DNA of 64,000 nucleotides from Deltaproteobacteria bacterium (GCA_026388535.1 JAPLJP010000026.1:1391-65390); one strand, 5' to 3'. Shown: positions 13,628 to 46,101, counted from the first letter of the stretch. A program made the numbers and translations. The notes: generated by a model from the letters alone, not told the origin.

Positions 13628-13820
13628 CCCCACTTAGCTTCGCACTAGGGACAATTCAACTTACAGACATTACTGCGCTCAGCTTGTAATATCTGAGTTT
13701 CATTGATTCCACTAATGCTTTCTATAGTCAGCGAGCCTCAAATCCCGCGTCGCTTCGCTTCTGGGATAATTCAACTTACATATTTCAGTGCACTCCGTTT
13801 CTGAAATATGCGTTTCATTA
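13628..13820 (-). repeat. Two family H copies (13628-13704, 13742-13820) plus a partial end at 13611-13621
   Basis: Minus strand TAATGAAACG-CATATTTCAG-AAACGGAGTGCA-CTGAAATATG-TAAGTTGAATTA-TCCC and CAGATATTAC-AAGCTGAGCGCA-GTAATGTCTG. Confidence 0.8.
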
Positions 13821-13898
13821 TTTTTTGATTCATTCTCTTGATTTTACTTTTATTTTAAGTTATCTGTGCAAAACGTATTTTTGACGGGGAGAATTTAA

Positions 13899-24080: not shown

Positions 24081-24115
24081 ATATGATTCTGACCTGTCGC
24101 GAATAAAACGGGATA

Positions 24116-24178
24116 TAATACCACGCAGCTTGCTGCGAAATGTTTCCCAGGCTTGCTTTGGGGTTTATACCCGTGATT
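24116..24178 (-). repeat. Dispersed palindromic element family P
   Basis: Reverse complement of AATCACGGGTATAAACCCCAAAGCAAG..GGAAAC..CGCAGCAAGCTGCG..GTATTA; other copies at 28773, 29165, 45964. Confidence 0.8.
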
Positions 24179-24223: not shown

Positions 24224-25036
24224 TTACAGATATATTTTGTTTTTTTGTCCTTTCATGCTCTCCCCGGTAATTTTTTCCATTTCTGCCCTGAACGACCAGC
24301 TATTAGAAATATAATCTATCTTCAAAACATTTTCAGGACAATTAGCTACACAGTCTAAACAGGCGATACATTTTTCTCTGTCTACTTCACCGGATTCAGC
24401 ATTCATCGCTCCAGAGGGACATGATTCCTCGCAAACTAAACACATGCCGCAGCTTTCTCCACCTCTGGTCGGGAGTTGTGTGAGCATGTTAAATCCGCTT
24501 GATTCCATAGAATCAAGCTGTTCTTCAGTATAATTGGTCTTTGCCAAGATGGTGTTGTCCTCACCGATAAATCGCTTGTATGTTATCTGGGCATATTCTG
24601 TCGCCACTTTAAAATCTGATTCATCAGGTCGACCTTCCATCGCCTTCCAGCCGCCAAGGTTGAAGGTATGAAACCCCAAGAACTCCGAGGAAGAAACAAC
24701 GATAAAGTTTTGATTTTCTAATAGCTGTTTTGTGGAATAATGAGTTGGGTGAACGGCAAATCCACCATATGTGAAAAAGGTTGAACATTTTTTACCTTGG
24801 CCATTCAGAGTTCTTATCCATTCCCTCACTGCTCTTGGGGCTCGCCAGGAATTAATAGGTGTACCAAACACTACCGCGTGATAAGGCTTTAAATCAAAGA
24901 TCCTTTGTCTATCTGCAAAGGAGGTAATATCAGACATGGTGACTTGACATCCAGTCTTTGTGAATGCATCTCCAATTACCTTTGCGATTTTTTTGGTGAT
25001 TCCTGTGGAAGAAAAATACAATATAAGCAACTTCAT
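24224..25036 (-). CDS. Flavodoxin-4Fe-4S ferredoxin fusion (EFR1-like)
   Basis: YFSSTGITKKIA flavodoxin start; CGMCLVCEESCP and CIACLDCVANCP. Confidence 0.85.
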   Translation of the reverse strand: MKLLILYFSSTGITKKIAKVIGDAFTKTGCQVTMSDITSFADRQRIFDLKPYHAVVFGTPINSWRAPRAVREWIRTLNGQGKKCSTFFTYGGFAVHPTHYSTKQLLENQNFIVVSSSEFLGFHTFNLGGWKAMEGRPDESDFKVATEYAQITYKRFIGEDNTILAKTNYTEEQLDSMESSGFNMLTQLPTRGGESCGMCLVCEESCPSGAMNAESGEVDREKCIACLDCVANCPENVLKIDYISNSWSFRAEMEKITGESMKGQKNKIYL

Positions 25037-25132: not shown

Positions 25133-26413
25133 TTACACCTTAAAGTTGGTTAAGCCGTTAAAATCTAAAGTAGCGAAGTAATCTTTCACTGTTTCGGCGC
25201 GGCGGATTTGCACGACTTCGCCATTTTCTCTTAACAGCAGTTCCGCCGAGCGAAGCTTGCCGTTATAATTGAAACCCATAGCGAAGCCATGAGCGCCGGC
25301 ATCGTGGATTACAATGATATCGCCTTGGTCGAGTTTTGGCAGTTTGCGGTCAATGGCGAATTTGTCGTTGTTTTCGCAAAGTGAGCCGGTTACATCATAA
25401 ACAAAATTATGAGGTTTATTTTCCTTGCCCATAACCGTGATGTGATGATACGCGCCGTAAAGAGCGGGACGCATCAGGTTGGCCATGCAAGAATCCAGGC
25501 CGGCAAATTTTTTATAAGTGTCTTTAATATGCAGGACTCGGGAAACCAGATAACCGTATGGACCGGTGATATAGCGGCCGCATTCCGTAAAAAGTTTAAT
25601 GGGGGCAAGGCCGTTAGCGACAATTATTTGTTCATATTTTTTCCTGATGCCGCCGCTCATTGTTTTTAAGTCTATTCGTTTTTCTTCCGGCCGGTAAGGA
25701 ATACCCACACCGCCGCCGATATTGACAAATTCAAATTTGATTTTCAGCTTTTGTGAAATTTCCGCTATAAGTTTAAACAGTATTTCAGCCGTTTCTTCAA
25801 AATAATGGGCATCGAGTTCATTGGAAGCAACCATGGTATGAATGCCGAATCGTTTGACACCTTTTTCTTTACAAATTTTATAACCTTCAAAAAGCTGTTC
25901 CCTAGTGAAGCCGTATTTCGCCTCCTCGGGATGGCCGATAATAAAATTCCCTTTTTTCAAATGGCCGGGATTGTAGCGGAAACAAATCAGAGAAGGTAAT
26001 CCGGCGTATTTTTCGAGATAGGCAATATGGCTGATATCATCCAGATTGATAATAGCTTTTAATTTCTTTGCCAGCAGAAAGTCTTCCACGGGCGTGTCAT
26101 TGGAAGAAAACATGATTTCTTTGCCGGTGATTCCCGTTTTTTGCGCCATGATAAGTTCCGCCAGTGAACTGCAATCAGAGCCGAAGCCTTCCTTATGCAG
26201 TATTTTCATCAAGTAGGGATTAGGCGCGGCTTTGACTGCGAAAAATTCTTTAAATCCCTCATTCCAGTTAAAAGCGTTCTTAAAGGCGCGCGCGTTTTCC
26301 CGCATGGCTTTTTCGTGGTAAAGATGAAAAGGCGTCGGATATTTTTTTATGATTTTTTCAATTTGATTTTTTGTAAAAGGCAATGGTTTTTCCGGCATAA
26401 AGCTCTCCTGCAT
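25133..26413 (-). CDS. lysA: Diaminopimelate decarboxylase
   Basis: FFAVKA (PLP Lys), EAKYG, NIGGG, ECGR, RPALYG, GSLCENND, GAHGFAMGFNYN. Confidence 0.92.
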   Translation of the reverse strand: MQESFMPEKPLPFTKNQIEKIIKKYPTPFHLYHEKAMRENARAFKNAFNWNEGFKEFFAVKAAPNPYLMKILHKEGFGSDCSSLAELIMAQKTGITGKEIMFSSNDTPVEDFLLAKKLKAIINLDDISHIAYLEKYAGLPSLICFRYNPGHLKKGNFIIGHPEEAKYGFTREQLFEGYKICKEKGVKRFGIHTMVASNELDAHYFEETAEILFKLIAEISQKLKIKFEFVNIGGGVGIPYRPEEKRIDLKTMSGGIRKKYEQIIVANGLAPIKLFTECGRYITGPYGYLVSRVLHIKDTYKKFAGLDSCMANLMRPALYGAYHHITVMGKENKPHNFVYDVTGSLCENNDKFAIDRKLPKLDQGDIIVIHDAGAHGFAMGFNYNGKLRSAELLLRENGEVVQIRRAETVKDYFATLDFNGLTNFKV

Positions 26414-26540
26414 GAGACTATTTCATCGCACATAAAATATCGTGCTTAGATTGTATGGCTTGATAGATGAATTTACGGTAAAAAATAAAAATTATCAATA
26501 TTATTTTCTGCTAGGAGAGCTGGTAGGTGAATACAGAAGA

Positions 26541-27542
26541 TTAAAAGAAATATTGTTTTAAAGAAAGATAAGTGATTGCGGAGATAATGGCGGAAATGGG
26601 AATGGTTAAAATCCATGCCCAGATAATGTTTCCGGCAACACCCCAGCGCACGGCGGAAAGTCTTTTGGTGGCGCCGACACCGACGATAGCGCCGGTTATT
26701 GTGTGGGTCGTGCTTACGGGTATTCCAAAAACGGATGCGCCAATAATGGCACAAGCGGCCCCGGCTTCGGCGCTAAAGCCGCCAATTGGACGCAGCTTCG
26801 TAATTTTAGTGCCCATAGTTTTAACGATGCGCCATCCGCCGAACATTGTTCCCAAGGCGATGGTAGTGTAGCACATGATAATAATCCAATAGGGAATGTT
26901 GAAGTTGGAATTAATCAATCCCTTGCTGTAAAGGACTATCGCGATTATTCCGATTGTTTTCTGCGCGTCATTCATACCGTGGCCTAGTGAATAGATCGCC
27001 GAAGAAATAAACTGTAATTTTCGATAAAGTTTATCGGAACGGGCCATGTTGGAATTGCGGTTTAGATTCATGGAGAGTACCATAAAAAAAAATCCTAAAA
27101 ACATACCTATGGCCGGTGAAAGAACAATGAAGGCTGTAGTCTTTATTATACCTGACCAAACAAGCGTGCTGGTGCCCGCTTTGGCAATACCGGCTCCGAT
27201 AAGACCGCCAATTAAGGCATGAGAAGAACTGCTGGGAAGTCCGTAATACCACGTTGTAATATTCCAGATGATGGCGCCGCTGAGGGCGGAAAGAATGACT
27301 AAATTATCAACAATATTAAGATGGATAATGCCCCTGCCGATAGTATGAGCGACCTGTGTTCCAATAAAAAATGCTGCTAAAAAGTTAAAAAAAGCCGCCC
27401 AGACCACCGCTTGTTTTGGGGAAAGAACTCTTGTGGAAACAATAGTGGAAATAGAATTAGAAGAATCGTGAAAGCCATTCAGGAAATCAAAAACAAGCGC
27501 GACGAGAACAAGAAATATGACAAAAGCCATTGAATCAAGCAT
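26541..27542 (-). CDS. pit: PiT-family inorganic phosphate transporter
   Basis: NGFHDSSNSI, PSSSSHALIG, HGMNDAQK, PVSTTH. Confidence 0.92.
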   Translation of the reverse strand: MLDSMAFVIFLVLVALVFDFLNGFHDSSNSISTIVSTRVLSPKQAVVWAAFFNFLAAFFIGTQVAHTIGRGIIHLNIVDNLVILSALSGAIIWNITTWYYGLPSSSSHALIGGLIGAGIAKAGTSTLVWSGIIKTTAFIVLSPAIGMFLGFFFMVLSMNLNRNSNMARSDKLYRKLQFISSAIYSLGHGMNDAQKTIGIIAIVLYSKGLINSNFNIPYWIIIMCYTTIALGTMFGGWRIVKTMGTKITKLRPIGGFSAEAGAACAIIGASVFGIPVSTTHTITGAIVGVGATKRLSAVRWGVAGNIIWAWILTIPISAIISAITYLSLKQYFF

Positions 27543-28155
27543 GTTTCAGGACAATCCCTTCCACGATGTTGGATACATCTTCACAAACGTCAATTGCTTC
27601 TTCAAGGAGTTGAAAAATATCTTTCCATTTCACAAGCTCAATGGCGTCTTTTTCGTTTTCGAAAAGATCGGCCATGATAGTTCTTAGAACAATATCACCG
27701 GCATTTTCCAGCGTGTTGATTTCCACGCATCCGGCGAGAATCATTTCGGAGTTTTTCATGTTGCGCATTGCCTGAACAATGCTTTTTACTTTCTTTATAG
27801 AATCGTTAAGTATTTGAGCCTGTTTTATTATTTCATCAGATGTTTTTTTGACTTTATAAAGATGAATACGGACAGCAGTTGCTTCAATGACATCCATGAT
27901 GCTGTCCATTTTGTTAACAAGCGCGTAGATATCTTCACGATCTATCGGCGTAAGGAAAGTCTTATGCATTTTTTCATATGTTTTATGGGTAATACCATCC
28001 GCTTCGTGTTCAATTTCTTTGAGCTTGGCAACCCTCACATCGGAATAATCACGAGTTTGTGCCATTTCCAGAAAAAGATTACCGCCCTCTTCAATTTTGT
28101 CAGCAAGCTCTTCAAAAAGTTCAAAAAAATTTTCTGTTTTAGGAAAAAGGCGCAT
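27535..28155 (-). CDS. DUF47/PhoU-like Pit accessory protein
   Basis: EHEAD, FLTPIDREDI, ENAGD, DVCEDV; overlaps pit start. Confidence 0.9.
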   Translation of the reverse strand: MRLFPKTENFFELFEELADKIEEGGNLFLEMAQTRDYSDVRVAKLKEIEHEADGITHKTYEKMHKTFLTPIDREDIYALVNKMDSIMDVIEATAVRIHLYKVKKTSDEIIKQAQILNDSIKKVKSIVQAMRNMKNSEMILAGCVEINTLENAGDIVLRTIMADLFENEKDAIELVKWKDIFQLLEEAIDVCEDVSNIVEGIVLKHA

Positions 28156-28281
28156 GAAAAATACCTCCCTTTATTTTTCCCAGGGGTTTATAAATTCAGG
28201 CAGTCCTCTAGCGAATTTTGAGAAAAAATGCAAGCTGTTTTAAAGCATGATATTTCCGCTTTGAGGATTTACTGTGTGTTA

Positions 28282-28764
28282 TTAAAGGGTTTTAGCGTAA
28301 ATAATTTTACCATCGCCTTCGTGATAAAAATTCTTTAAAAAGGCTTCCTTTTGATAGCCGCAGCTTTCATAAAAACCATGGGTTGGTTGATATTGGTGCC
28401 GGGAAGATGTTTCGACGTATACCTGCCTGCCGCCGCTGGAGCGAATGATCTTTTCTGTTTCGGCCATAAGTAGTTTTCCCAGACCTTTGCTGCGCATTTC
28501 TTTTAATACGGCTATCCAGTAGATGTCATAGCTGGAGTGAGTTGCGGGAATGAGACCATAGCAAGTGTATCCGACAACACGTTTGTTGTCTTCGGCAAAT
28601 ACAAACTGGTAAGAGCAGTCATGGGGCTGTGTCAGCTTTTCTTCCGCTAGCTCCAGAGCGATTTCTATTTCCTCGGCGGAGAAAAAGCCGCTGGATTTTA
28701 CAATATCGGCAATGGCTCCGATATCTGAATGCTGTATATGCTGACGATAGATAAAATCATTCAT
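28282..28764 (-). CDS. GNAT acetyltransferase (last gene of the kamA/ATP-grasp operon)
   Basis: GYTCYG, YDIYWIAV, RSKGLGK acetyl-CoA motif, ETSS..FYESCGY; the extension to 28860 is translated repeat sequence. Confidence 0.88.
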   Translation of the reverse strand: MNDFIYRQHIQHSDIGAIADIVKSSGFFSAEEIEIALELAEEKLTQPHDCSYQFVFAEDNKRVVGYTCYGLIPATHSSYDIYWIAVLKEMRSKGLGKLLMAETEKIIRSSGGRQVYVETSSRHQYQPTHGFYESCGYQKEAFLKNFYHEGDGKIIYAKTL

Positions 28765-28772
28765 AAAATAAT

Positions 28773-29224
28773 AACCACGGGTATGAACCCCAAAGCAAGT
28801 TTTGGAAACGTTTCGCTGCAAGCTGCTGGGTATTATACCCTCCGCTTTGCGGGATATCACGTCGAGCTTCAGTCGCTGAATAATATCACAAACAGCAAAG
28901 GTTTGCTGTTAAAGTTTTTCAGGTGGCCGTACCAGGCGAAAGTCATAAACAGGTTGGAAAAGAAAAGGAATACAATGGTTCTTAACACAGAATTTAAATC
29001 TCCTTCAAAATTAATGAGACCCAAGCTTCAGAAACGGAGTGTACAACCTGAAGGTCATCTACGACTGAAGTTTGCAGGTCGAATTAATGAAACTCAAATA
29101 TTACAAACGCAGTGCAGTAATATTTGTAAGTTGAATTATCCCTGTGTGCAAAGCACATAGGGATATCCCGCATAGCGGAGGGTATCATAACCAAAAGCTT
29201 GCTTTGGGATTCATCCCCGTGATT
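28773..29224. mobile_element. Composite ~450-bp insert: inverted family P copies enclosing a truncated gene and two tandem family H copies (29012-29164)
   Basis: P (+) 28773-28855 and P (-) 29165-29224, both ending in ACCCTCCGCT(T/A)TGCGGGAT; H copies begin TAATGA at 29012 and 29085. Confidence 0.7.
28869..28988 (-). pseudogene. 5' fragment (39 codons) of a DMT/DUF486-family membrane protein
   Basis: GAAGGAG RBS, GTG start, SNLFMTFAWYGHLK..PLLFVILFS then stop; too short for the ORF track. Confidence 0.8.
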
Positions 29225-30203
29225 TCAGCGCGTTATCGATTATCAAACCAATAGCATCGTGATATTTTATTTTTGCCTGCTCGAGCGCGGCGGCAAAACC
29301 GGCGTCAGGCGATAAACATGGATTGGAATTGATTTCCAGCACCCAAGGCTTGCCGTTATTGTCAACGCGAAAATCGACGCGCGCGTACCCGCGTAAAGAA
29401 AAAAGATTCCAGCAACGCAAGGCAATTTCGCGCAAAGATGTTATTAAACCAGTATCGTTTTTCTGAAAATTAAATTTTCGTATCGTATTATTATATTCAA
29501 AAGAATCAGCAACCCATTTGGCTCTGTAGTCAACGATTTTAAGTTTGTCCGGGGCGTAATCCTGAAATAACATTTCCGCTATAGGCAAGACTTTAACACC
29601 GGCTTTGCCCGATATGAGGGCTACGTTGAATTCACGGCCGTCAATATAGGCTTCGGCGTAACATGAGCCGCCAAGTTTTTCTTTACGGCGGCTTATTTCT
29701 TTTAAGATTTTTGCTTTACTTGTATAGCTGATAAGCGAGTCTTCATCGAGGCCGATAGAAGCGTGTTCCCAGGAAGACTTGATTAAATATGTTTTGGCAT
29801 TATCTTTTTGGGAACCGAAACCATCATGTTCTATCCAGTCCGGAGTGGAAACACAGGCATCGCGCATGATTTTCTTGGACAGAGGTTTGTTCGATGTTTG
29901 AAACACAGCTTGCGTGTCGCATCCGGTGTAAGAAAGTCGCAGGCTATCGAGAAGGGCTGGAGCAAAATAAATCAAACTGCCCTTAGAGGCCAGAGTTTCC
30001 ACAATATTGAAAACGGCCTGCGGTTTTAATGATTTCAGCTTTATTATGGTCTGATTTAAATCAAGTTCAAAAGGCAACAATATAGGTTTGTAATCCAGTA
30101 TGCGCAAAGCCCGGGCGATTGCTTCGGCTTGCTGGAGACAATCAAGTTCATCCTCTGCGGCGTCGGGCGAAATATCACTGTGTAATATCACTATTTTTTT
30201 CAT
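29211..30203 (-). CDS. D-Ala-D-Ala ligase-like ATP-grasp enzyme 2
   Basis: VFNIVE, YTG, IKSSWEHASIG, YIDGREFNV, YARVDFR, LEINSNP. Confidence 0.88.
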   Translation of the reverse strand: MKKIVILHSDISPDAAEDELDCLQQAEAIARALRILDYKPILLPFELDLNQTIIKLKSLKPQAVFNIVETLASKGSLIYFAPALLDSLRLSYTGCDTQAVFQTSNKPLSKKIMRDACVSTPDWIEHDGFGSQKDNAKTYLIKSSWEHASIGLDEDSLISYTSKAKILKEISRRKEKLGGSCYAEAYIDGREFNVALISGKAGVKVLPIAEMLFQDYAPDKLKIVDYRAKWVADSFEYNNTIRKFNFQKNDTGLITSLREIALRCWNLFSLRGYARVDFRVDNNGKPWVLEINSNPCLSPDAGFAAALEQAKIKYHDAIGLIIDNALKSRG

Positions 30204-30233
30204 GAAGAATATTTCACCGGCCTTTATAGATGA

Positions 30234-31256
30234 TTATTTCCTCGCGCGTTTTAAAGCTGATTTAATAATGGCACTGATTAATTTGTGATAGCTCATTCCT
30301 ATTTTAGAGCACAAAATGGGTAAATCCGAACGAATGGGATTCAGTCCGGCAAGCGAATTGACTTCCATGAAATGGGGAACACCATGAACATTAGAGCGCA
30401 AATCAATACGGCCGGCGTCTTTTAAATCCAATCCGCGCCAGGCCATAAGTGAAATTTCCATGGCTTTTTGGGCTTCATCATCGTTGACCAGTGTATACTC
30501 AACCAGCTTATCATAGTGTTCTTTGTTTTCGTATGAGTAAGCGTTCTTTTCCGCGTCCGGTTTGAGAATTACCTCCAGTGCTCCCAGGGCGCGGGCATCC
30601 TTCCCTGTTCCTAAAATGCCCACGGTAAATTCGCGGCCGGGAAGATATGTTTCGATAAGTACAGGCTGTTGGAAAGTTTTTAAAAGATTTTTGCAGACCT
30701 TTTGCAAATTTCTACGATTGGTTATTTTTGACAATGCCGTTATGCCCTTGCCTGTTCCTTCCGCCACAGGTTTGGCAAAAAGCGGAAAGGGAAGATTAAC
30801 TTTGTCAATATCTTTTGCGTTGTTAACTACTGCAAAATCGGGAGTGGGTATTCCCAAATCGCGGAGAATTTGCTTTGTAATGCCCTTATGGAGAGAAACG
30901 GCGTGGCCTAGGGGATCGGAAAAAGTATAGGGAATGTTATATGCTTCCAGAAGGGCGGGAACCTGCGCTTCGCGGCCGAAACCATACATGCCTTCAGCAA
31001 TGTTAAAAACGAGATCCCATCGGTTTCCTTCCACAAGCCGGCGGGTCAAAGCTTTTATATTGCCGATTCGATCAGCCCCAAAGCCGTTGTCTAAAATTAC
31101 CTTTTCAATCGCTTCGATTGTATCGGGAAGATCGAATTCCGCGGTTTCTTCGAGACCATAACCTTCTTTTAGATAATCATCGCGTAGATCATAGGTGAGA
31201 CCGATTTTGAGTTTCTTGCTGACGCGACTCACGGTTAAATTATCTACCCCCTGCAA
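30234..31256 (-). CDS. D-Ala-D-Ala ligase-like ATP-grasp enzyme 1 (start uncertain)
   Basis: GLTYDLR, VFNIAEG, REAQVPALLE, KPVAEGTGKG, GREFTV, GRIDLR, EVNSLAGL. Confidence 0.88.
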   Translation of the reverse strand: MQGVDNLTVSRVSKKLKIGLTYDLRDDYLKEGYGLEETAEFDLPDTIEAIEKVILDNGFGADRIGNIKALTRRLVEGNRWDLVFNIAEGMYGFGREAQVPALLEAYNIPYTFSDPLGHAVSLHKGITKQILRDLGIPTPDFAVVNNAKDIDKVNLPFPLFAKPVAEGTGKGITALSKITNRRNLQKVCKNLLKTFQQPVLIETYLPGREFTVGILGTGKDARALGALEVILKPDAEKNAYSYENKEHYDKLVEYTLVNDDEAQKAMEISLMAWRGLDLKDAGRIDLRSNVHGVPHFMEVNSLAGLNPIRSDLPILCSKIGMSYHKLISAIIKSALKRARK

Positions 31257-31271
31257 TAAGATTCTGCCGAT

Positions 31272-32579
31272 TTAATGTATATCTTTCGACTTTGCGTGAT
31301 TGTCGGGGTAGCGGAAAGTATTGCCTTCGTAATTACGCAGCAGCAAAGCGCCGTTTTCCCATCCGATGGCGTATTCGGGAAGCAAAGGAATTTTACCGCC
31401 GCCGCCGGGCGCGTCAACAACATAAGTAGGCACAGCGTAACCGGTGGTGTGTCCGCGCATGCCTTGAATAATTTCAATGCCCTTGCTTATCGGTGTCCGG
31501 AAATGAGAAGAACCCGGAATGGGATCGCATTGATACAGATAATAGGGACGGACTCTGATTTGTAGTTGGCCATGCACCAATCTTGTCATGGTGGCAACGT
31601 CATCATTAATATCAGCAAGCAGGACGGTTTGGCTTCCCAACGGAATGCCGGCATCGGCCAGACGAATGCAGGCAGCGCTCATTTCCGGAGTCAGTTCTCT
31701 CGGATGGGTTATATGAATGCTCATCCATAAGGGATGATATTTTTTCAGCATGGTGGTAAGGGCCGGGGTTATTCTCTGAGGCAAAACAACGGGCACCTTT
31801 GTTCCGATGCGGATAAGTTCAATATGAGGAATCTTGTGCAGGCGCGTTAAAAGCCATTCTAACTTTTCATCGGATAGGGTTAGGGGATCGCCGCCGGAAA
31901 GCAACACGTCCCGGATATTTTTATTGCCGGCAATATATTGAATAGCCTTTTCCCATTTTTCGAGACTTATCAAGTGATGCTTGCTCCGTTCAATAATACG
32001 GGAACGGGTGCAGTAACGGCAATAAGTGGAGCAGCTGTCGGTTACCAGAAACAGAACGCGGTCAGGGTAGCGATGAATAATACCCGGCACAGGAGAATCC
32101 ACATCCTCGCAGAGTGGATCTTCTTCTTCTCCTTCGGTATGCAGGCATTCATCGACCACGGGAACAACGCAGCGGCGCAAGGGATCTGAAGGATCATCAG
32201 GATAGAGCAGACTGGCGTAATAAGGTGTAATGGAAACAGGCAATGCTCCGGAATGATGCATCATGGCTTGACGTTCATTGTCTGAAAGATTAAGTATTTG
32301 AGACAAGGTGTCAACATCCCTGATGGCGTTACGCAGTTGCCAGTGCCAGTCAAACCATTCCAGGCGGGTAATTTCGGGATAATTTTGTGTTCGGAAGATA
32401 CGGGAGCGGGCTGAATCTTTAAAAGGAAATAAAACTCTATCTGACTTTTGTTTAATCGGGTACTGGGAATGCTCTGCTTTGAATAACAAAAAGTCACTTA
32501 CATTATTTTCAACATTAACAAGACCGGTCAATGGACCAGGAGGTTCCTCCTCCTCTTTAAACAGGGTCTCGCTTTCCAT
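31272..32579 (-). CDS. kamA: KamA-family radical SAM/PLP aminomutase (lysine 2,3-aminomutase type)
   Basis: HRYPDRVL, CSTYCRYCTR, SGGDPL, YLYQCD, VVDAPGGGGK (PLP Lys). Confidence 0.9.
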   Translation of the reverse strand: MESETLFKEEEEPPGPLTGLVNVENNVSDFLLFKAEHSQYPIKQKSDRVLFPFKDSARSRIFRTQNYPEITRLEWFDWHWQLRNAIRDVDTLSQILNLSDNERQAMMHHSGALPVSITPYYASLLYPDDPSDPLRRCVVPVVDECLHTEGEEEDPLCEDVDSPVPGIIHRYPDRVLFLVTDSCSTYCRYCTRSRIIERSKHHLISLEKWEKAIQYIAGNKNIRDVLLSGGDPLTLSDEKLEWLLTRLHKIPHIELIRIGTKVPVVLPQRITPALTTMLKKYHPLWMSIHITHPRELTPEMSAACIRLADAGIPLGSQTVLLADINDDVATMTRLVHGQLQIRVRPYYLYQCDPIPGSSHFRTPISKGIEIIQGMRGHTTGYAVPTYVVDAPGGGGKIPLLPEYAIGWENGALLLRNYEGNTFRYPDNHAKSKDIH

Positions 32580-32653
32580 TTTGTTCCTCCTTTTGAAGGT
32601 TTCCCTCCCGTAAAAATAAATCTGTAATGAAAAATAAAAACTCTTGATTAAGG

Positions 32654-32681
32654 AATGTACTCATACAGAAATATTTGTCAA
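32654..32681 (-). promoter_or_regulatory. Putative sigma70 promoter of the kamA operon
   Basis: Minus strand TTGACA-16 nt-TACATT. Confidence 0.45.
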
Positions 32682-33125
32682 CACTTTTTTGCATTTTTGT
32701 CATAAAAAAATAAAAATAATTTTTGAAGGCGTTTTCCTTGAAAAAAATATTTCTGATTCCCCGGTGATATTTTTGCCGGCTTAATGGTTAAGTTCTATTA
32801 TTTATCGGGCAAAATATAAAATCATCAATGTTGCGCTAACACCCGTGGAGTCTATGTCAGAACAAGATGGAAGAGGCTGTCGGAGGAATAGGAACGTTCC
32901 AAGGGAAACGCGAATTCTTTTGAAAAAATGAATGGGGAGGTCTGGTTATGACCAGTTATGTTCATCTGTAGCTCATCGGGCGGGCGGAGCATGTTTAGTT
33001 AAAGATCGGGGGAAGTTTGTCGAACGGAAAAAAGAAATAGGCAAAAAGAATGTTTTTTAGTAAAACGAAAACGTTCCTTCAAAAGATAAATAAAAATGTT
33101 TCCAATGTGAACGCGGAGATCATCA

Positions 33126-33899
33126 ATGCCCGAATTGCCTGAAGTAGAAACTCTCAGCTGTCAACTGCAAGAAAAGATTTGCGGCAGGAAGATATTGGCT
33201 ACTGAGGTTTACGACAGTAAACTGGCCGATATTAAAAATCTTAAAGGAAGAATAATCACGGCGGTTGAACGCAAGGGAAAAACGATAGCCATTCTGCTCG
33301 ATGACGGGAATTTCGTGTTAATACATCTGCGCATGACGGGAAGACTTTTTTGGCAGGAGGATTCAACAAGGCCGAAACATAGCCGCTGGAGAATAACTTT
33401 TGTCGGTGGCAATGTCTTTCTTATCGATCCACGCCGTTTTGCCACAATCAAGATAATTAAGAAAGTTGAAAGCCAGCCCTCCAAAGATATTTTTAAGGAA
33501 TTTGATCTCAAAGATTTCATAAAAAATCATGGAAGCCGCAGAGCAAAAGTTAAATCGCTGATTATGGATCAAAGAGCCGTGGCGGGAATAGGCAACATTT
33601 ATGCGAGTGAGATTTTACACAGGGCCGGTATTCATCCCGAACGAATAGCGGCAACTCTGACGAAAGATGACTGGAAAAAAATATTCCATCAGGCCAAAGC
33701 CGTATTAAAAACAGCGATTAGAAAAAGAGGCACTTCAATTTCCGATTGGCGCGATTTGTATGGTCGCAAAGGCGAAAACCAACACGAGTTGAAAGCTTAT
33801 GGACAGGTAGGAAAACGCTGTTCAATTTGCGGTGGCACAATTTGCCGGATAAAACAAGGTGGACGCGGCACTTTTTATTGTCCCAGTTGTCAAAAGTAG
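33126..33899 (+). CDS. mutM: Formamidopyrimidine-DNA glycosylase
   Basis: MPELPEVET, HLRMTG, DPRRF, GIGNIYASE, C-terminal Zn finger CSIC..CPSCQ. Confidence 0.95.
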   Translation: MPELPEVETLSCQLQEKICGRKILATEVYDSKLADIKNLKGRIITAVERKGKTIAILLDDGNFVLIHLRMTGRLFWQEDSTRPKHSRWRITFVGGNVFLIDPRRFATIKIIKKVESQPSKDIFKEFDLKDFIKNHGSRRAKVKSLIMDQRAVAGIGNIYASEILHRAGIHPERIAATLTKDDWKKIFHQAKAVLKTAIRKRGTSISDWRDLYGRKGENQHELKAYGQVGKRCSICGGTICRIKQGGRGTFYCPSCQK

Positions 33900-33922
33900 C
33901 GCATACGATAAAAAATGAACAT

Positions 33923-34429
33923 TTAAAAATTATTTATTGGCTTATAAGCTTCAATGATCAATTGACGTATTTTGCTTTTCGGAGGCACATCGCCAACAGA
34001 GACAACCTTATTATTTATTACCAGAGCGGGAGATCCTAAAAGTTTGTAGCGCGCTATTTCCTTAACATCGGTAATGTGTCTAAGGCTGGCGGCAATTTTC
34101 ATTTCGGATAATAAATCGCGCACATCATTTTCCAACTGACCACAACGCGCGCAGCCCATACCCACAACTTCGATATTAAGTCCGCGGACAGTTTCTTCGG
34201 CGACAAGTATTCCTTCTGCTATCTTGAATTCTCTTAAAAGCGCGTTCCCATAAGAGTCAAGCGCGGAAGGCGGCACGTAATTATTAATAGAAATGTCTTT
34301 GAGCAGACTATTTTTGATTTCTTCATCACTATTGGCCTGCAAGCTTATTTTTTTTATAGCATCGTCTAACCCGACGATACCAACCAGGCGGCCATTAATC
34401 ATAATTTGTTTTATTTTATCTTCAGCCAT
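33923..34429 (-). CDS. Small thioredoxin-like (redox-active disulfide protein 2) domain protein with N-terminal extension
   Basis: VGMGCARC, GSPALVIN..VSVGDVP. Confidence 0.8.
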   Translation of the reverse strand: MAEDKIKQIMINGRLVGIVGLDDAIKKISLQANSDEEIKNSLLKDISINNYVPPSALDSYGNALLREFKIAEGILVAEETVRGLNIEVVGMGCARCGQLENDVRDLLSEMKIAASLRHITDVKEIARYKLLGSPALVINNKVVSVGDVPPKSKIRQLIIEAYKPINNF

Positions 34430-45925: not shown

Positions 45926-45963
45926 AATAGATAAAGACGAATGATGAAAATTGCATTTGCAGT

Positions 45964-46101
45964 AATCACGGGTATAAACCCCAACGCAAGCTTTGGAAAC
46001 AAAGTCGAAAGCTCGCTGCGGGGTATTACACCCTCCGCTTTGCGGGATTGTTCGACTTACAAATTTCAATTCACTTCGTTTTTGAAATTTGAGTCTCACA
46101 A
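45964..46101. repeat. Family P copy (45964-46028) joined to a minus-strand family H copy (46031-46101)
   Basis: AATCACGGGTATAAACCCC...GGGTATTA-CACCCTCCGCTTTGCGGGAT-TGTTCGACTTACAAATTTCAA..TTGAAATTTGAGTCTCACAA. Confidence 0.8.

Follow-up and report, generated by a model that had tools for sequence, protein, structure and literature searches.

Beta-lysine has three established fates: it can be fermented, acetylated to give an osmolyte, or attached to EF-P or antibiotics. Related chemistry occurs in other systems: in the PylB/PylC pathway, lysine is rearranged by a radical S-adenosylmethionine (SAM) enzyme, whose product a Ddl-like ATP-grasp ligase then couples to an amine, and carnosine synthase, an ATP-grasp enzyme, makes a beta-aminoacyl dipeptide that the M20-family carnosinase degrades. 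In the pathway to N-acetylglutaminylglutamine amide (NAGGN), reportedly described by Sagot and colleagues in 2010, Ngg is said to combine a GNAT with an ATP-grasp dipeptide synthase and to be accompanied by AsnO. N-epsilon-acetyl-beta-lysine, the product of AblA and AblB in methanogens and green sulfur bacteria, is described as a salt-induced compatible solute in passages of two papers (PMC3543383, PMC9337991). Here, we describe a four-gene cassette in a 64,000-nucleotide stretch of DNA (the window; GCA_026388535.1, contig JAPLJP010000026.1, positions 1391–65390) from a deltaproteobacterium. The cassette encodes a KamA-family aminomutase, two ATP-grasp ligases (AG1 and AG2) and a GNAT acetyltransferase (Table 1).

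The chances are about even that this cassette provides a route, driven by ATP and independent of the ribosome, to a di/tripeptide or small amide of beta-lysine that is N-acetylated. It is widely conserved and would work along the lines of AblAB, Ngg, PylB/PylC and carnosine synthase/carnosinase; its proteins fall short of the family criteria for Ddl, AblB and, by a small margin, AblA. The four co-oriented genes and their domains, as set out in a preliminary description of this DNA, were all confirmed on the minus strand. The host genome assembly (2.86 Mb in 193 contigs) is 96% complete, and its nearest public relatives carry Smithella or Syntrophaceae labels.

Conservation was assessed in 134 loci, consisting of 80 loci of a first set and 54 taken from genomes within the host phylum, with no locus pair having AG1 DNA at least 98.5% identical. 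Loci with AG1 at least 66% identical were classed as close kin (n = 50) and the others as distant (n = 84), and denominators refer to the loci assessable for each feature. KamA lies directly upstream of AG1 in 44/44 close-kin and 65/78 distant loci, AG2 is directly downstream of AG1 in 48/48 and 67/81, and GNAT is found downstream in 43/43 and 53/77, respectively. All four genes are kept together in 39/39 close-kin and 45/73 distant loci, which bears out the expectation that similar neighbourhoods exist in other bacteria; conservation of the gene order over the 134 loci excludes a chance arrangement. Shorter versions are confined to distant loci, seven of which have KamA and AG1 only and eight KamA, AG1 and AG2 without GNAT. 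In the 77 loci with enough downstream DNA, AG1 is followed by both AG2 and GNAT in 53, by AG2 only in 11 and by neither in 13, and GNAT is never found without AG2. Additionally, AG2 and GNAT form a single open reading frame (ORF) in five loci (L103, L126, L142, L143 and L146), and the only NCBIfam models matched by the fusion protein were of Ddl and RimI/GNAT type. The nested content (AG1, then AG2, then GNAT) and the AG2-GNAT fusions fit an ordered route in which a di/tripeptide is made and then acetylated.

The AG1 family is present in 88/401 sampled genomes and 60/254 genera of the host phylum. The cassette is single-copy and core-like, with AG1 and KamA 55–68% identical across phyla. According to the submitters' labels in the first set of loci, the carriers represent about nine phyla (Desulfobacterota, Moduliflexus/Vecturithrix, Planctomycetota, Bacillota, Bacteroidota, Myxococcota, Ca. 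Cybelea, Fibrobacteres and WOR-3).

KamA passes the family model TIGR00238 (360.8 bits, cut-off 199.2), falls just short of the AblA equivalog TIGR03820 (495.8 bits, cut-off 525.4), and scores lower on the glutamate, arginine and EpmB models. It was aligned over 363 residues (E = 1.7e-133) to lysine 2,3-aminomutase from Clostridium subterminale (PDB code 2A5H), in which we take the CxxxCxxC motif to bind the Fe-S cluster, K337 to be the pyridoxal phosphate (PLP) lysine, and D293 and D330 to bind the epsilon-ammonium group of the substrate. Counted along the rows of the alignment, the cysteines of CSTYCRYC in KamA correspond to the cluster cysteines, the aspartates of YQCD and VVDAP to D293 and D330, and the lysine of GGGGK to K337. 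The zinc site of 2A5H is presumably formed by C268 and the C-terminal residues Cys375, Cys377 and Cys380; KamA has no such site, since C268 is replaced by aspartate and the 39 residues that follow GGGGK contain no cysteine. Both the retention of the catalytic motifs and the loss of the C-terminal zinc cluster had been read from the sequence earlier, and both readings hold. The Fe-S, PLP-lysine and lysine-specific motif residues are invariant in 59/59 cluster-linked KamAs of other genomes, and in the 55 of the cluster KamAs that contain an exact GGGGK, the tail is 30–86 residues long with 0–2 cysteines. KamA is predicted to convert L-lysine to beta-lysine.

A second KamA paralogue is encoded on another contig (C48) of the host genome, directly upstream of efp and an epmA-like lysyl-tRNA synthetase homologue. 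As stated in the preliminary description, efp and epmA are absent from the vicinity of the cassette, and the C48 genes appear to be an EF-P beta-lysylation set separate from it. With its own KamA paralogue beside efp and epmA, EF-P modification needs no cassette KamA. Neither AblB nor BKACE/Kce was found in the 96%-complete host genome, and thus no other outlet is apparent for the beta-lysine that the cassette would make. A genome search for KamD (PF09043) ran without a positive control and carries no weight.

AG1 and AG2 share 25% sequence identity. AG1 matches Pfam Dala_Dala_lig_C (E = 9.7e-27) and AG2 gives a Pfam match with E = 8.7e-16, but their best NCBIfam Ddl models reach only 150.8 and 96.9 bits, respectively, against cut-offs of 243. 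AG2 also weakly matches the TTL family over the conserved ATP-grasp motif. The host genome has a true Ddl elsewhere, on a different contig (348.7 bits, cut-off 245.65). GTG 31232 is the likely start of AG1, since most homologues start there, the sequence AGGGGG lies upstream, and residues 1–11 of the model are disordered. The AlphaFold2 (AF2) models of AG1 and AG2 have predicted local distance difference test (pLDDT) scores of 93.1 and 94.5, respectively. In Foldseek searches with both models, DdlB was the top match, with template modelling (TM) scores of 0.77–0.83 to Ddl structures. A family-profile search of the PDB also placed Ddl nearest (E ~1e-35), followed by the L-amino-acid ligase BL00235 (E ~1e-10), with cyanophycin and glutathione synthetases much weaker than BL00235. 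In the ESM Atlas and a search of 5.8 billion proteins, AG1 relatives are named only "D-alanine--D-alanine ligase family" or "hypothetical".

The active sites were compared by aligning 29 AG1 and 19 AG2 sequences to E. coli DdlB with MAFFT and checking the result against HMMER pairwise alignments. Both ligase families keep equivalents of the ATP/Mg and acyl-phosphate residues K97, K144, E180, E187, K215, R255, D257, E270 and N272, with little or no variation. We take S150, Y216, S281 and L282 of DdlB to be substrate-pocket positions. In AG1, S150 is replaced by T, Y216 by E (22/29) and L282 by D (29/29), with S281 unchanged; in AG2, the replacements are A/G for S150, W for Y216 (19/19), A/S for S281 and G for L282, and G276 becomes C in 18/18 aligned sequences (one more is gapped). 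At two positions of the Ddl second-substrate pocket, AG1 has family-specific acidic residues, and these would be compatible with a cationic substrate, beta-lysine being one example. The N-terminal 70–80 residues of both ligases are not aligned to Ddl by HMMER, and the positions assigned by MAFFT to Ddl E15, H63 and E68 were dropped for this reason; since these N-terminal domains cannot be reliably aligned, the MAFFT assignment of E15 is unsafe. Two Ddl-like ATP-grasp ligases had been proposed at this locus, and the proteins do retain the catalytic residues, are modelled with the Ddl fold and fail the Ddl cut-offs. As judged from their sequences and models, AG1 and AG2 are probably functional ligases whose specificities are new. 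A third Ddl-like ATP-grasp gene in the host genome, whose product is 28% identical to AG2 and scores 99.8 bits on the Ddl model, stands alone, flanked by genes for large membrane proteins (Table 1).

The acetyltransferase matches Pfam Acetyltransf_1 (E = 2.2e-13; 50.9 bits, gathering score 20.7) and is not AblB, with only 21.6 bits on TIGR03827 (cut-off 205.1). Its long ORF extends to 28860 and runs into a repeat; ATG 28764 was taken as the start because orthologues and PDB entry 2R7H align only from there. 2R7H (E = 3e-40; ~48% identity estimated by eye) is a structural-genomics entry titled "putative D-alanine N-acetyltransferase of GNAT family", a name that is the depositor's guess. No functional study of 2R7H was found, and its code turned up only in unrelated papers.

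The spacers within the cassette are 15 or 39 nt (KamA-AG1), 30 nt (AG1-AG2) and 446 nt (AG2-GNAT). The last gap had been ascribed to a repeat insert, and repeat copies are indeed present, but it also contains a 32-codon stump of a DMT_6/DUF486 gene that is intact in relatives. The remnant spans positions 5–34 of the 104-position PF04342 profile rather than the full-length domain, and is the only DMT_6 match in the host genome. An intact DMT_6 gene (101–109 residues; E = 2.7e-44 in L043) fills the same gap in 18 close-kin loci, and the gene is decayed in four others (L013, L025, L032 and L044); contig ends cut the gap in two, and the remaining close kin have less than 150 nt and no DMT_6. The host gap is thus the site of a fifth cluster gene, for a small membrane protein, that was destroyed by repeat insertions. 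The repeat is 80–95 nt long and gave 54 matches genome-wide, with the query region counted among them, and frequently occurs in inverted pairs. The copy nearest GNAT carries a promoter-like GTGATA-17 nt-TATAAT directed toward GNAT, which is a consensus match only.

Additional genes accompany the cassette in other genomes, and these, like the AG2-GNAT fusions, are all outside the window. A Hist_deacetyl protein of 570–700 residues is found in nine distant loci, mostly between AG2 and GNAT. A weak GNAT-like N-terminus was detected in three of the five Hist_deacetyl proteins examined (L098, L119 and L142), and the L098 protein is additionally fused to the cluster GNAT at its C-terminus; an acetyltransferase and a deacetylase within one polypeptide, as in these three loci, are an unusual combination. 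An M20 protein is encoded downstream of the cluster in five loci, with PRK06446 ("hypothetical protein", 236.5 bits) as its best model, followed by "dipeptidase" (177.9 bits), both below their cut-offs. Transport genes include those for an MFS transporter downstream in three loci, MatE and HlyD/ABC proteins (together with a MarR regulator) adjoining the cluster in Bacillota loci, an amino-acid permease, and an unknown permease of 500 residues in two loci.

A sigma-54 activator is encoded within 5 kb upstream in 18/84 distant loci. The element TGGCAC-N5-TTGC[AT] occurs 5' of KamA as a perfect match in 6/67 loci and as a 10-of-11 match in seven more, compared with ~0.05 perfect matches expected by chance (an estimate for uniform base composition). 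Between activator and KamA, 18/84 distant loci also encode a small protein that has no Pfam family of its own; its nearest Atlas lead is DUF5818 (score 0.88), and some copies have signal peptides, as read from the sequence. Four copies (L125, L128, L138 and L141) carry at the C-terminus a membrane anchor plus a tail resembling PG_binding_1, confirmed by Pfam in L125 and L138 (E ~1e-15) and assigned by sequence likeness only in L128 and L141. With a single query, this protein was not found in the host genome.

A few further arrangements were seen in one or two loci. In L101 (8470–13001), the genes upstream of KamA-AG1 include those for a CdaA-type diadenylate cyclase with fused YbbR and OmpA domains, for CorA and PsiE, and for an AG2-like protein; this arrangement, found in one genome only, may hint at a connection with c-di-AMP and osmotic signalling. 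In a WOR-3-labelled genome, a gene for an S58 (DmpA/BapA-type) peptidase abuts KamA-AG1 (L081, 4221–5567; seen once); the S58 family includes beta-aminopeptidases. In two distant loci (L049, 5453–6004, and L052, 4496–5017), a cysteine-rich protein of 173–183 residues with a weak CxxCxxCC match (PF03692, E = 1e-3) is encoded between KamA and AG1.

The cassette resembles AblAB in pairing a lysine 2,3-aminomutase with a later GNAT, and AblA is the best equivalog model for KamA. It differs in that KamA is below the AblA cut-off, that neither the cassette GNAT nor any other protein found in the genome is AblB, and that two ATP-grasp ligases lie between aminomutase and GNAT, the latter never occurring without AG2. 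The Ddl/Van enzymes share with both ligases the fold, all of the ATP/Mg and transition-state residues, and the nearest sequence relationship; the differences are the replaced equivalents of S150, Y216 and L282 in AG1 and of S150, Y216, G276 and L282 in AG2, the scores under the cut-off, the N-terminal domain that HMMER cannot align, and the presence of a true Ddl elsewhere. The NAGGN system likewise joins acetyltransferase and ATP-grasp domains in one protein to give an N-acetylated dipeptide solute, comparable to the five AG2-GNAT fusions, but the cassette has no amidotransferase and its precursor would be a beta-amino acid from a radical SAM mutase. With PylB/PylC, the cassette shares a radical SAM lysine rearrangement followed by Ddl-like ligation; its KamA is, however, a PLP-dependent 2,3-aminomutase rather than PylB, and there is no PylD. 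No PylC chain was among the PDB sequence matches of either ligase family profile at E values up to 0.001. The pairing of ATP-grasp and M20 enzymes recalls carnosine metabolism by analogy only, and M20 is missing at most cassette loci and in the window.

From these sequences, we infer a route with its chemical steps, ligation partners, acetylation site and role. KamA, given its conserved residues, would turn L-lysine into beta-lysine; AG1, the gene product with the tightest link to KamA, would form an acyl-phosphate and join beta-lysine to a first partner; AG2 would add a second partner; and GNAT would acetylate a remaining free amine, most plausibly the lysine-type epsilon-amine. This amine is favoured because Hist_deacetyl is a recurrent counterpart of GNAT, and the histone-deacetylase family acts on acetyl-lysine or acetyl-polyamine-like substrates. 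The histone-deacetylase-type amidohydrolase and the M20 dipeptidase-like hydrolase may provide lineage-specific turnover, product movement may be handled by DMT_6, MFS, MatE, ABC or permease transporters depending on the lineage, and the sigma-54 activator would control the operon in many lineages. The transport and hydrolase genes suggest a small soluble product that is subject to transport and turnover. Its most likely role, judged by comparison with N-epsilon-acetyl-beta-lysine, NAGGN and carnosine, would be that of an intracellular protective or nitrogen-rich solute. A ribosome-independent route to a beta-lysyl di/tripeptide had already been suggested in the preliminary description, and is now favoured by the conservation, the KamA residues, the intact non-Ddl ligases, the nested gene content and the fusions; the cell-wall or protein modification offered there as an option is weakly supported, by PG_binding_1 in two accessory proteins according to Pfam and by two look-alikes.

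Several points weigh against the proposed route or the intracellular role of its product. It is only by adjacency that beta-lysine is assigned as the probable substrate of AG1, in which the invariant E40 and D42 of the N-terminal region mean that an acidic amine-binding residue may persist. KamA is not directly adjacent in 13/78 distant loci, four of which have it nearby in another arrangement; for the others, a KamA homologue (48–65% identity) was found elsewhere in 5/5 tested genomes. In the host itself, DMT_6 has decayed and a repeat-laden spacer parts GNAT from AG2, such that co-transcription of GNAT is not assured. The metagenome labels (unverified) of runs and records containing the stretch or its relatives are mostly freshwater sediment, peat and digester sludge, with no pointer to salt stress. 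Four accessory small proteins have PG-binding-like C-termini, two of them confirmed by Pfam, and the efflux-type MatE, HlyD/ABC and MFS proteins would suit a secreted product at least as well. The cassette could alternatively make a secreted bioactive small peptide (a cationic beta-lysine peptide, metallophore or signal), with acetylation and deacetylation serving self-protection and activation; streptothricin producers acetylate an amine of beta-lysine. MarR in Bacillota, DMT_6 in the 18 close kin, the 500-residue permease and the pairing of GNAT with a deacetylase in nine loci are in line with this idea as well. We consider it unlikely, since the strong conservation of AG1 and KamA across phyla, the single copy and the occurrence in 22% of sampled phylum genomes are unlike typical secondary-metabolite clusters; nonribosomal peptide synthetases, polyketide synthases and tailoring enzymes are absent, the type of transporter varies with none at most loci, and DMT_6 is dispensable, having decayed in the host and four relatives.

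The closeness of both ligases to Ddl, and the anchored, PG_binding_1-like small proteins encoded just upstream of KamA in four loci, could instead mean that a beta-lysine unit is attached to a cell-envelope precursor, such as the peptidoglycan stem or bridge, in the manner of enterococcal D-aspartate ligase, an ATP-grasp enzyme that adds to peptidoglycan. This is quite improbable: across the 134 loci, conserved wall genes, such as those for a Mur ligase, transpeptidase or flippase, are lacking, the carriers span differing envelope types, the PG-binding tail occurs in only 4/18 small-protein loci, and the deacetylase, dipeptidase and transporter neighbours better suit a soluble molecule. The same small protein might be the target of RimK- or LysX/LysW-style protein modification by the ATP-grasp enzymes, for which its location between sigma-54 activator and KamA and the weak TTL-family match of AG2 could be cited. 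It is missing, however, from 66/84 distant and 50/50 close-kin loci, several copies have signal peptides and are therefore not cytoplasmic substrates, and the nearest relatives of the ligases (Ddl, then BL00235) act on small molecules, which makes protein modification more doubtful still. Lysine catabolism via acetyl-beta-lysine, which has been suggested for the kamA-yodP-yodQ operon of Bacillus subtilis, is resembled by the combination of KamA and GNAT with an M20 hydrolase in five loci, but two ATP-consuming ligases are anabolic, the aminotransferase, dehydrogenase, CoA-transferase and Kce are neither conserved in the cluster nor found in the genome, and lysA, the neighbour in Syntrophales, is biosynthetic; such a function can hardly be credited.

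The upstream neighbour of the cassette, fpg, is in divergent orientation. A strong ribosome-binding site, AAGGAGG, is located immediately 5' of the KamA ATG, and a sigma-70-like promoter candidate lies farther upstream (Table 1); the latter is weak evidence, since the consensus scan gave 20 sites with 17.2 expected. No sigma-54 element GG-N10-GC occurs in 32450–33200, and no Rfam match at E up to 1 was obtained in 26000–34000. In 27 of the 30 distant loci of the first 80-locus set (L062, L074 and L077 omitted), only tRNAs exceeded the Rfam gathering score. Downstream of GNAT are DUF47/PhoU-like, Pit and lysA genes, the last found, as previously noted, about 2 kb away on the same strand. The DUF47-Pit-lysA context is kept in Syntrophales-type relatives, and one distant locus from that order (L096) has DUF47-Pit after AG2; lysA is missing from distant loci. 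As it is linked only in Syntrophales-type relatives, its linkage to the cassette is weak, and lysA, the sole lysA-like gene found in the host genome, was dropped as a pathway member. The EFR1-family flavodoxin-ferredoxin fusion encoded next to lysA could donate electrons to radical SAM enzymes.

Table 1. Positions of the cassette genes, neighbouring features and related genes in other contigs and loci (window coordinates unless a locus is given).
Feature	Position	Strand	Length	Remarks
KamA	32579-31272	-	435 aa	ORF and domain searches
AG1, ATP-grasp ligase	31256-30234	-	332 aa	length from likely start GTG 31232
AG2, ATP-grasp ligase	30203-29211	-	330 aa	
GNAT	28764-28282	-	160 aa	
Repeat copies	29010..29173			between AG2 and DMT_6 remnant; own-genome DNA search
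DMT_6/DUF486 remnant	28967-28872, stop 28871-28869	-	32 codons	N-terminal codons; PF04342 E 3.1e-10
Second repeat copy	28773..28855			replaces rest of DMT_6; own-genome DNA search
Further repeat copies in window	~24111-24178, 13637-13712, 13763-13823, 45963-46048			converted from contig coordinates
Sigma-70-like promoter candidate	32654..32681	-		TTGACA-16 nt-TACATT, upstream of KamA; consensus scan
DUF47/PhoU-like gene	28155-27535	-		downstream of GNAT
Pit phosphate transporter	27542-26541	-		downstream of GNAT
lysA	26413-25133	-		1.9 kb downstream of cassette
EFR1-family flavodoxin-ferredoxin fusion	24224-25036	-		just downstream of lysA; 88.9 bits, cut-off 75
Second KamA paralogue, efp and epmA-like set	L002, contig C48, 433-2962			366-aa EpmB-like KamA, 43% identity
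Third Ddl-like ATP-grasp gene	L085, contig C89, 1468-2487	-	339 aa	
Hist_deacetyl proteins with weak GNAT-like N-terminus	L098:8082-10343; L119:4147-5901; L142:5258-6979			
Small upstream protein	L099:4289-4576; L107:9929-10267; L138:9430-10029; 15 further loci			core WD..GNV...DEEEY

No description of a KamA, ATP-grasp and GNAT cluster was found in the literature searched, and an earlier in-silico prediction (Iyer et al. 2009) stays possible. Passages of PMC3543383, PMC5585712, PMC9337991, PMC8836040 and PMC12316311 concern AblAB, EF-P or unrelated genes and not this cluster, and the sigma-54 regulome paper PMC4641369 does not mention it in the main text or five supplementary files.

The cassette would add to the three established fates of beta-lysine a fourth, ligase-based route, carried by roughly one in five of the Desulfobacterota sampled as well as by members of several other phyla, and would point to an unrecognised metabolite of the syntrophs and other anaerobes that run methanogenic sediments, peat and digesters. 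Since the order of steps is clear from the nesting of the genes and from the fusions, the pathway is directly testable with four proteins. If the proposal is correct, the Ddl branch of the ATP-grasp superfamily would gain two new substrate specificities, useful for enzymatic synthesis of beta-peptides. More tentatively, and with rather less confidence than in the route itself, N-acetylated beta-lysyl di/tripeptides made by two Ddl-derived ligases might constitute a new class of metabolites in anaerobes of, by their labels, at least nine phylum-level groups, acting as a major protective or nitrogen-buffering solute under sigma-54 control or as a cation of polyamine type whose charge is tuned by GNAT and deacetylase. 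In that case, Ddl-type enzymes would have been co-opted for the peptide chemistry of beta-amino acids on two occasions, and a widespread small molecule would have been overlooked in Syntrophales, Desulfobacterales, Planctomycetota, Bacteroidota and others.

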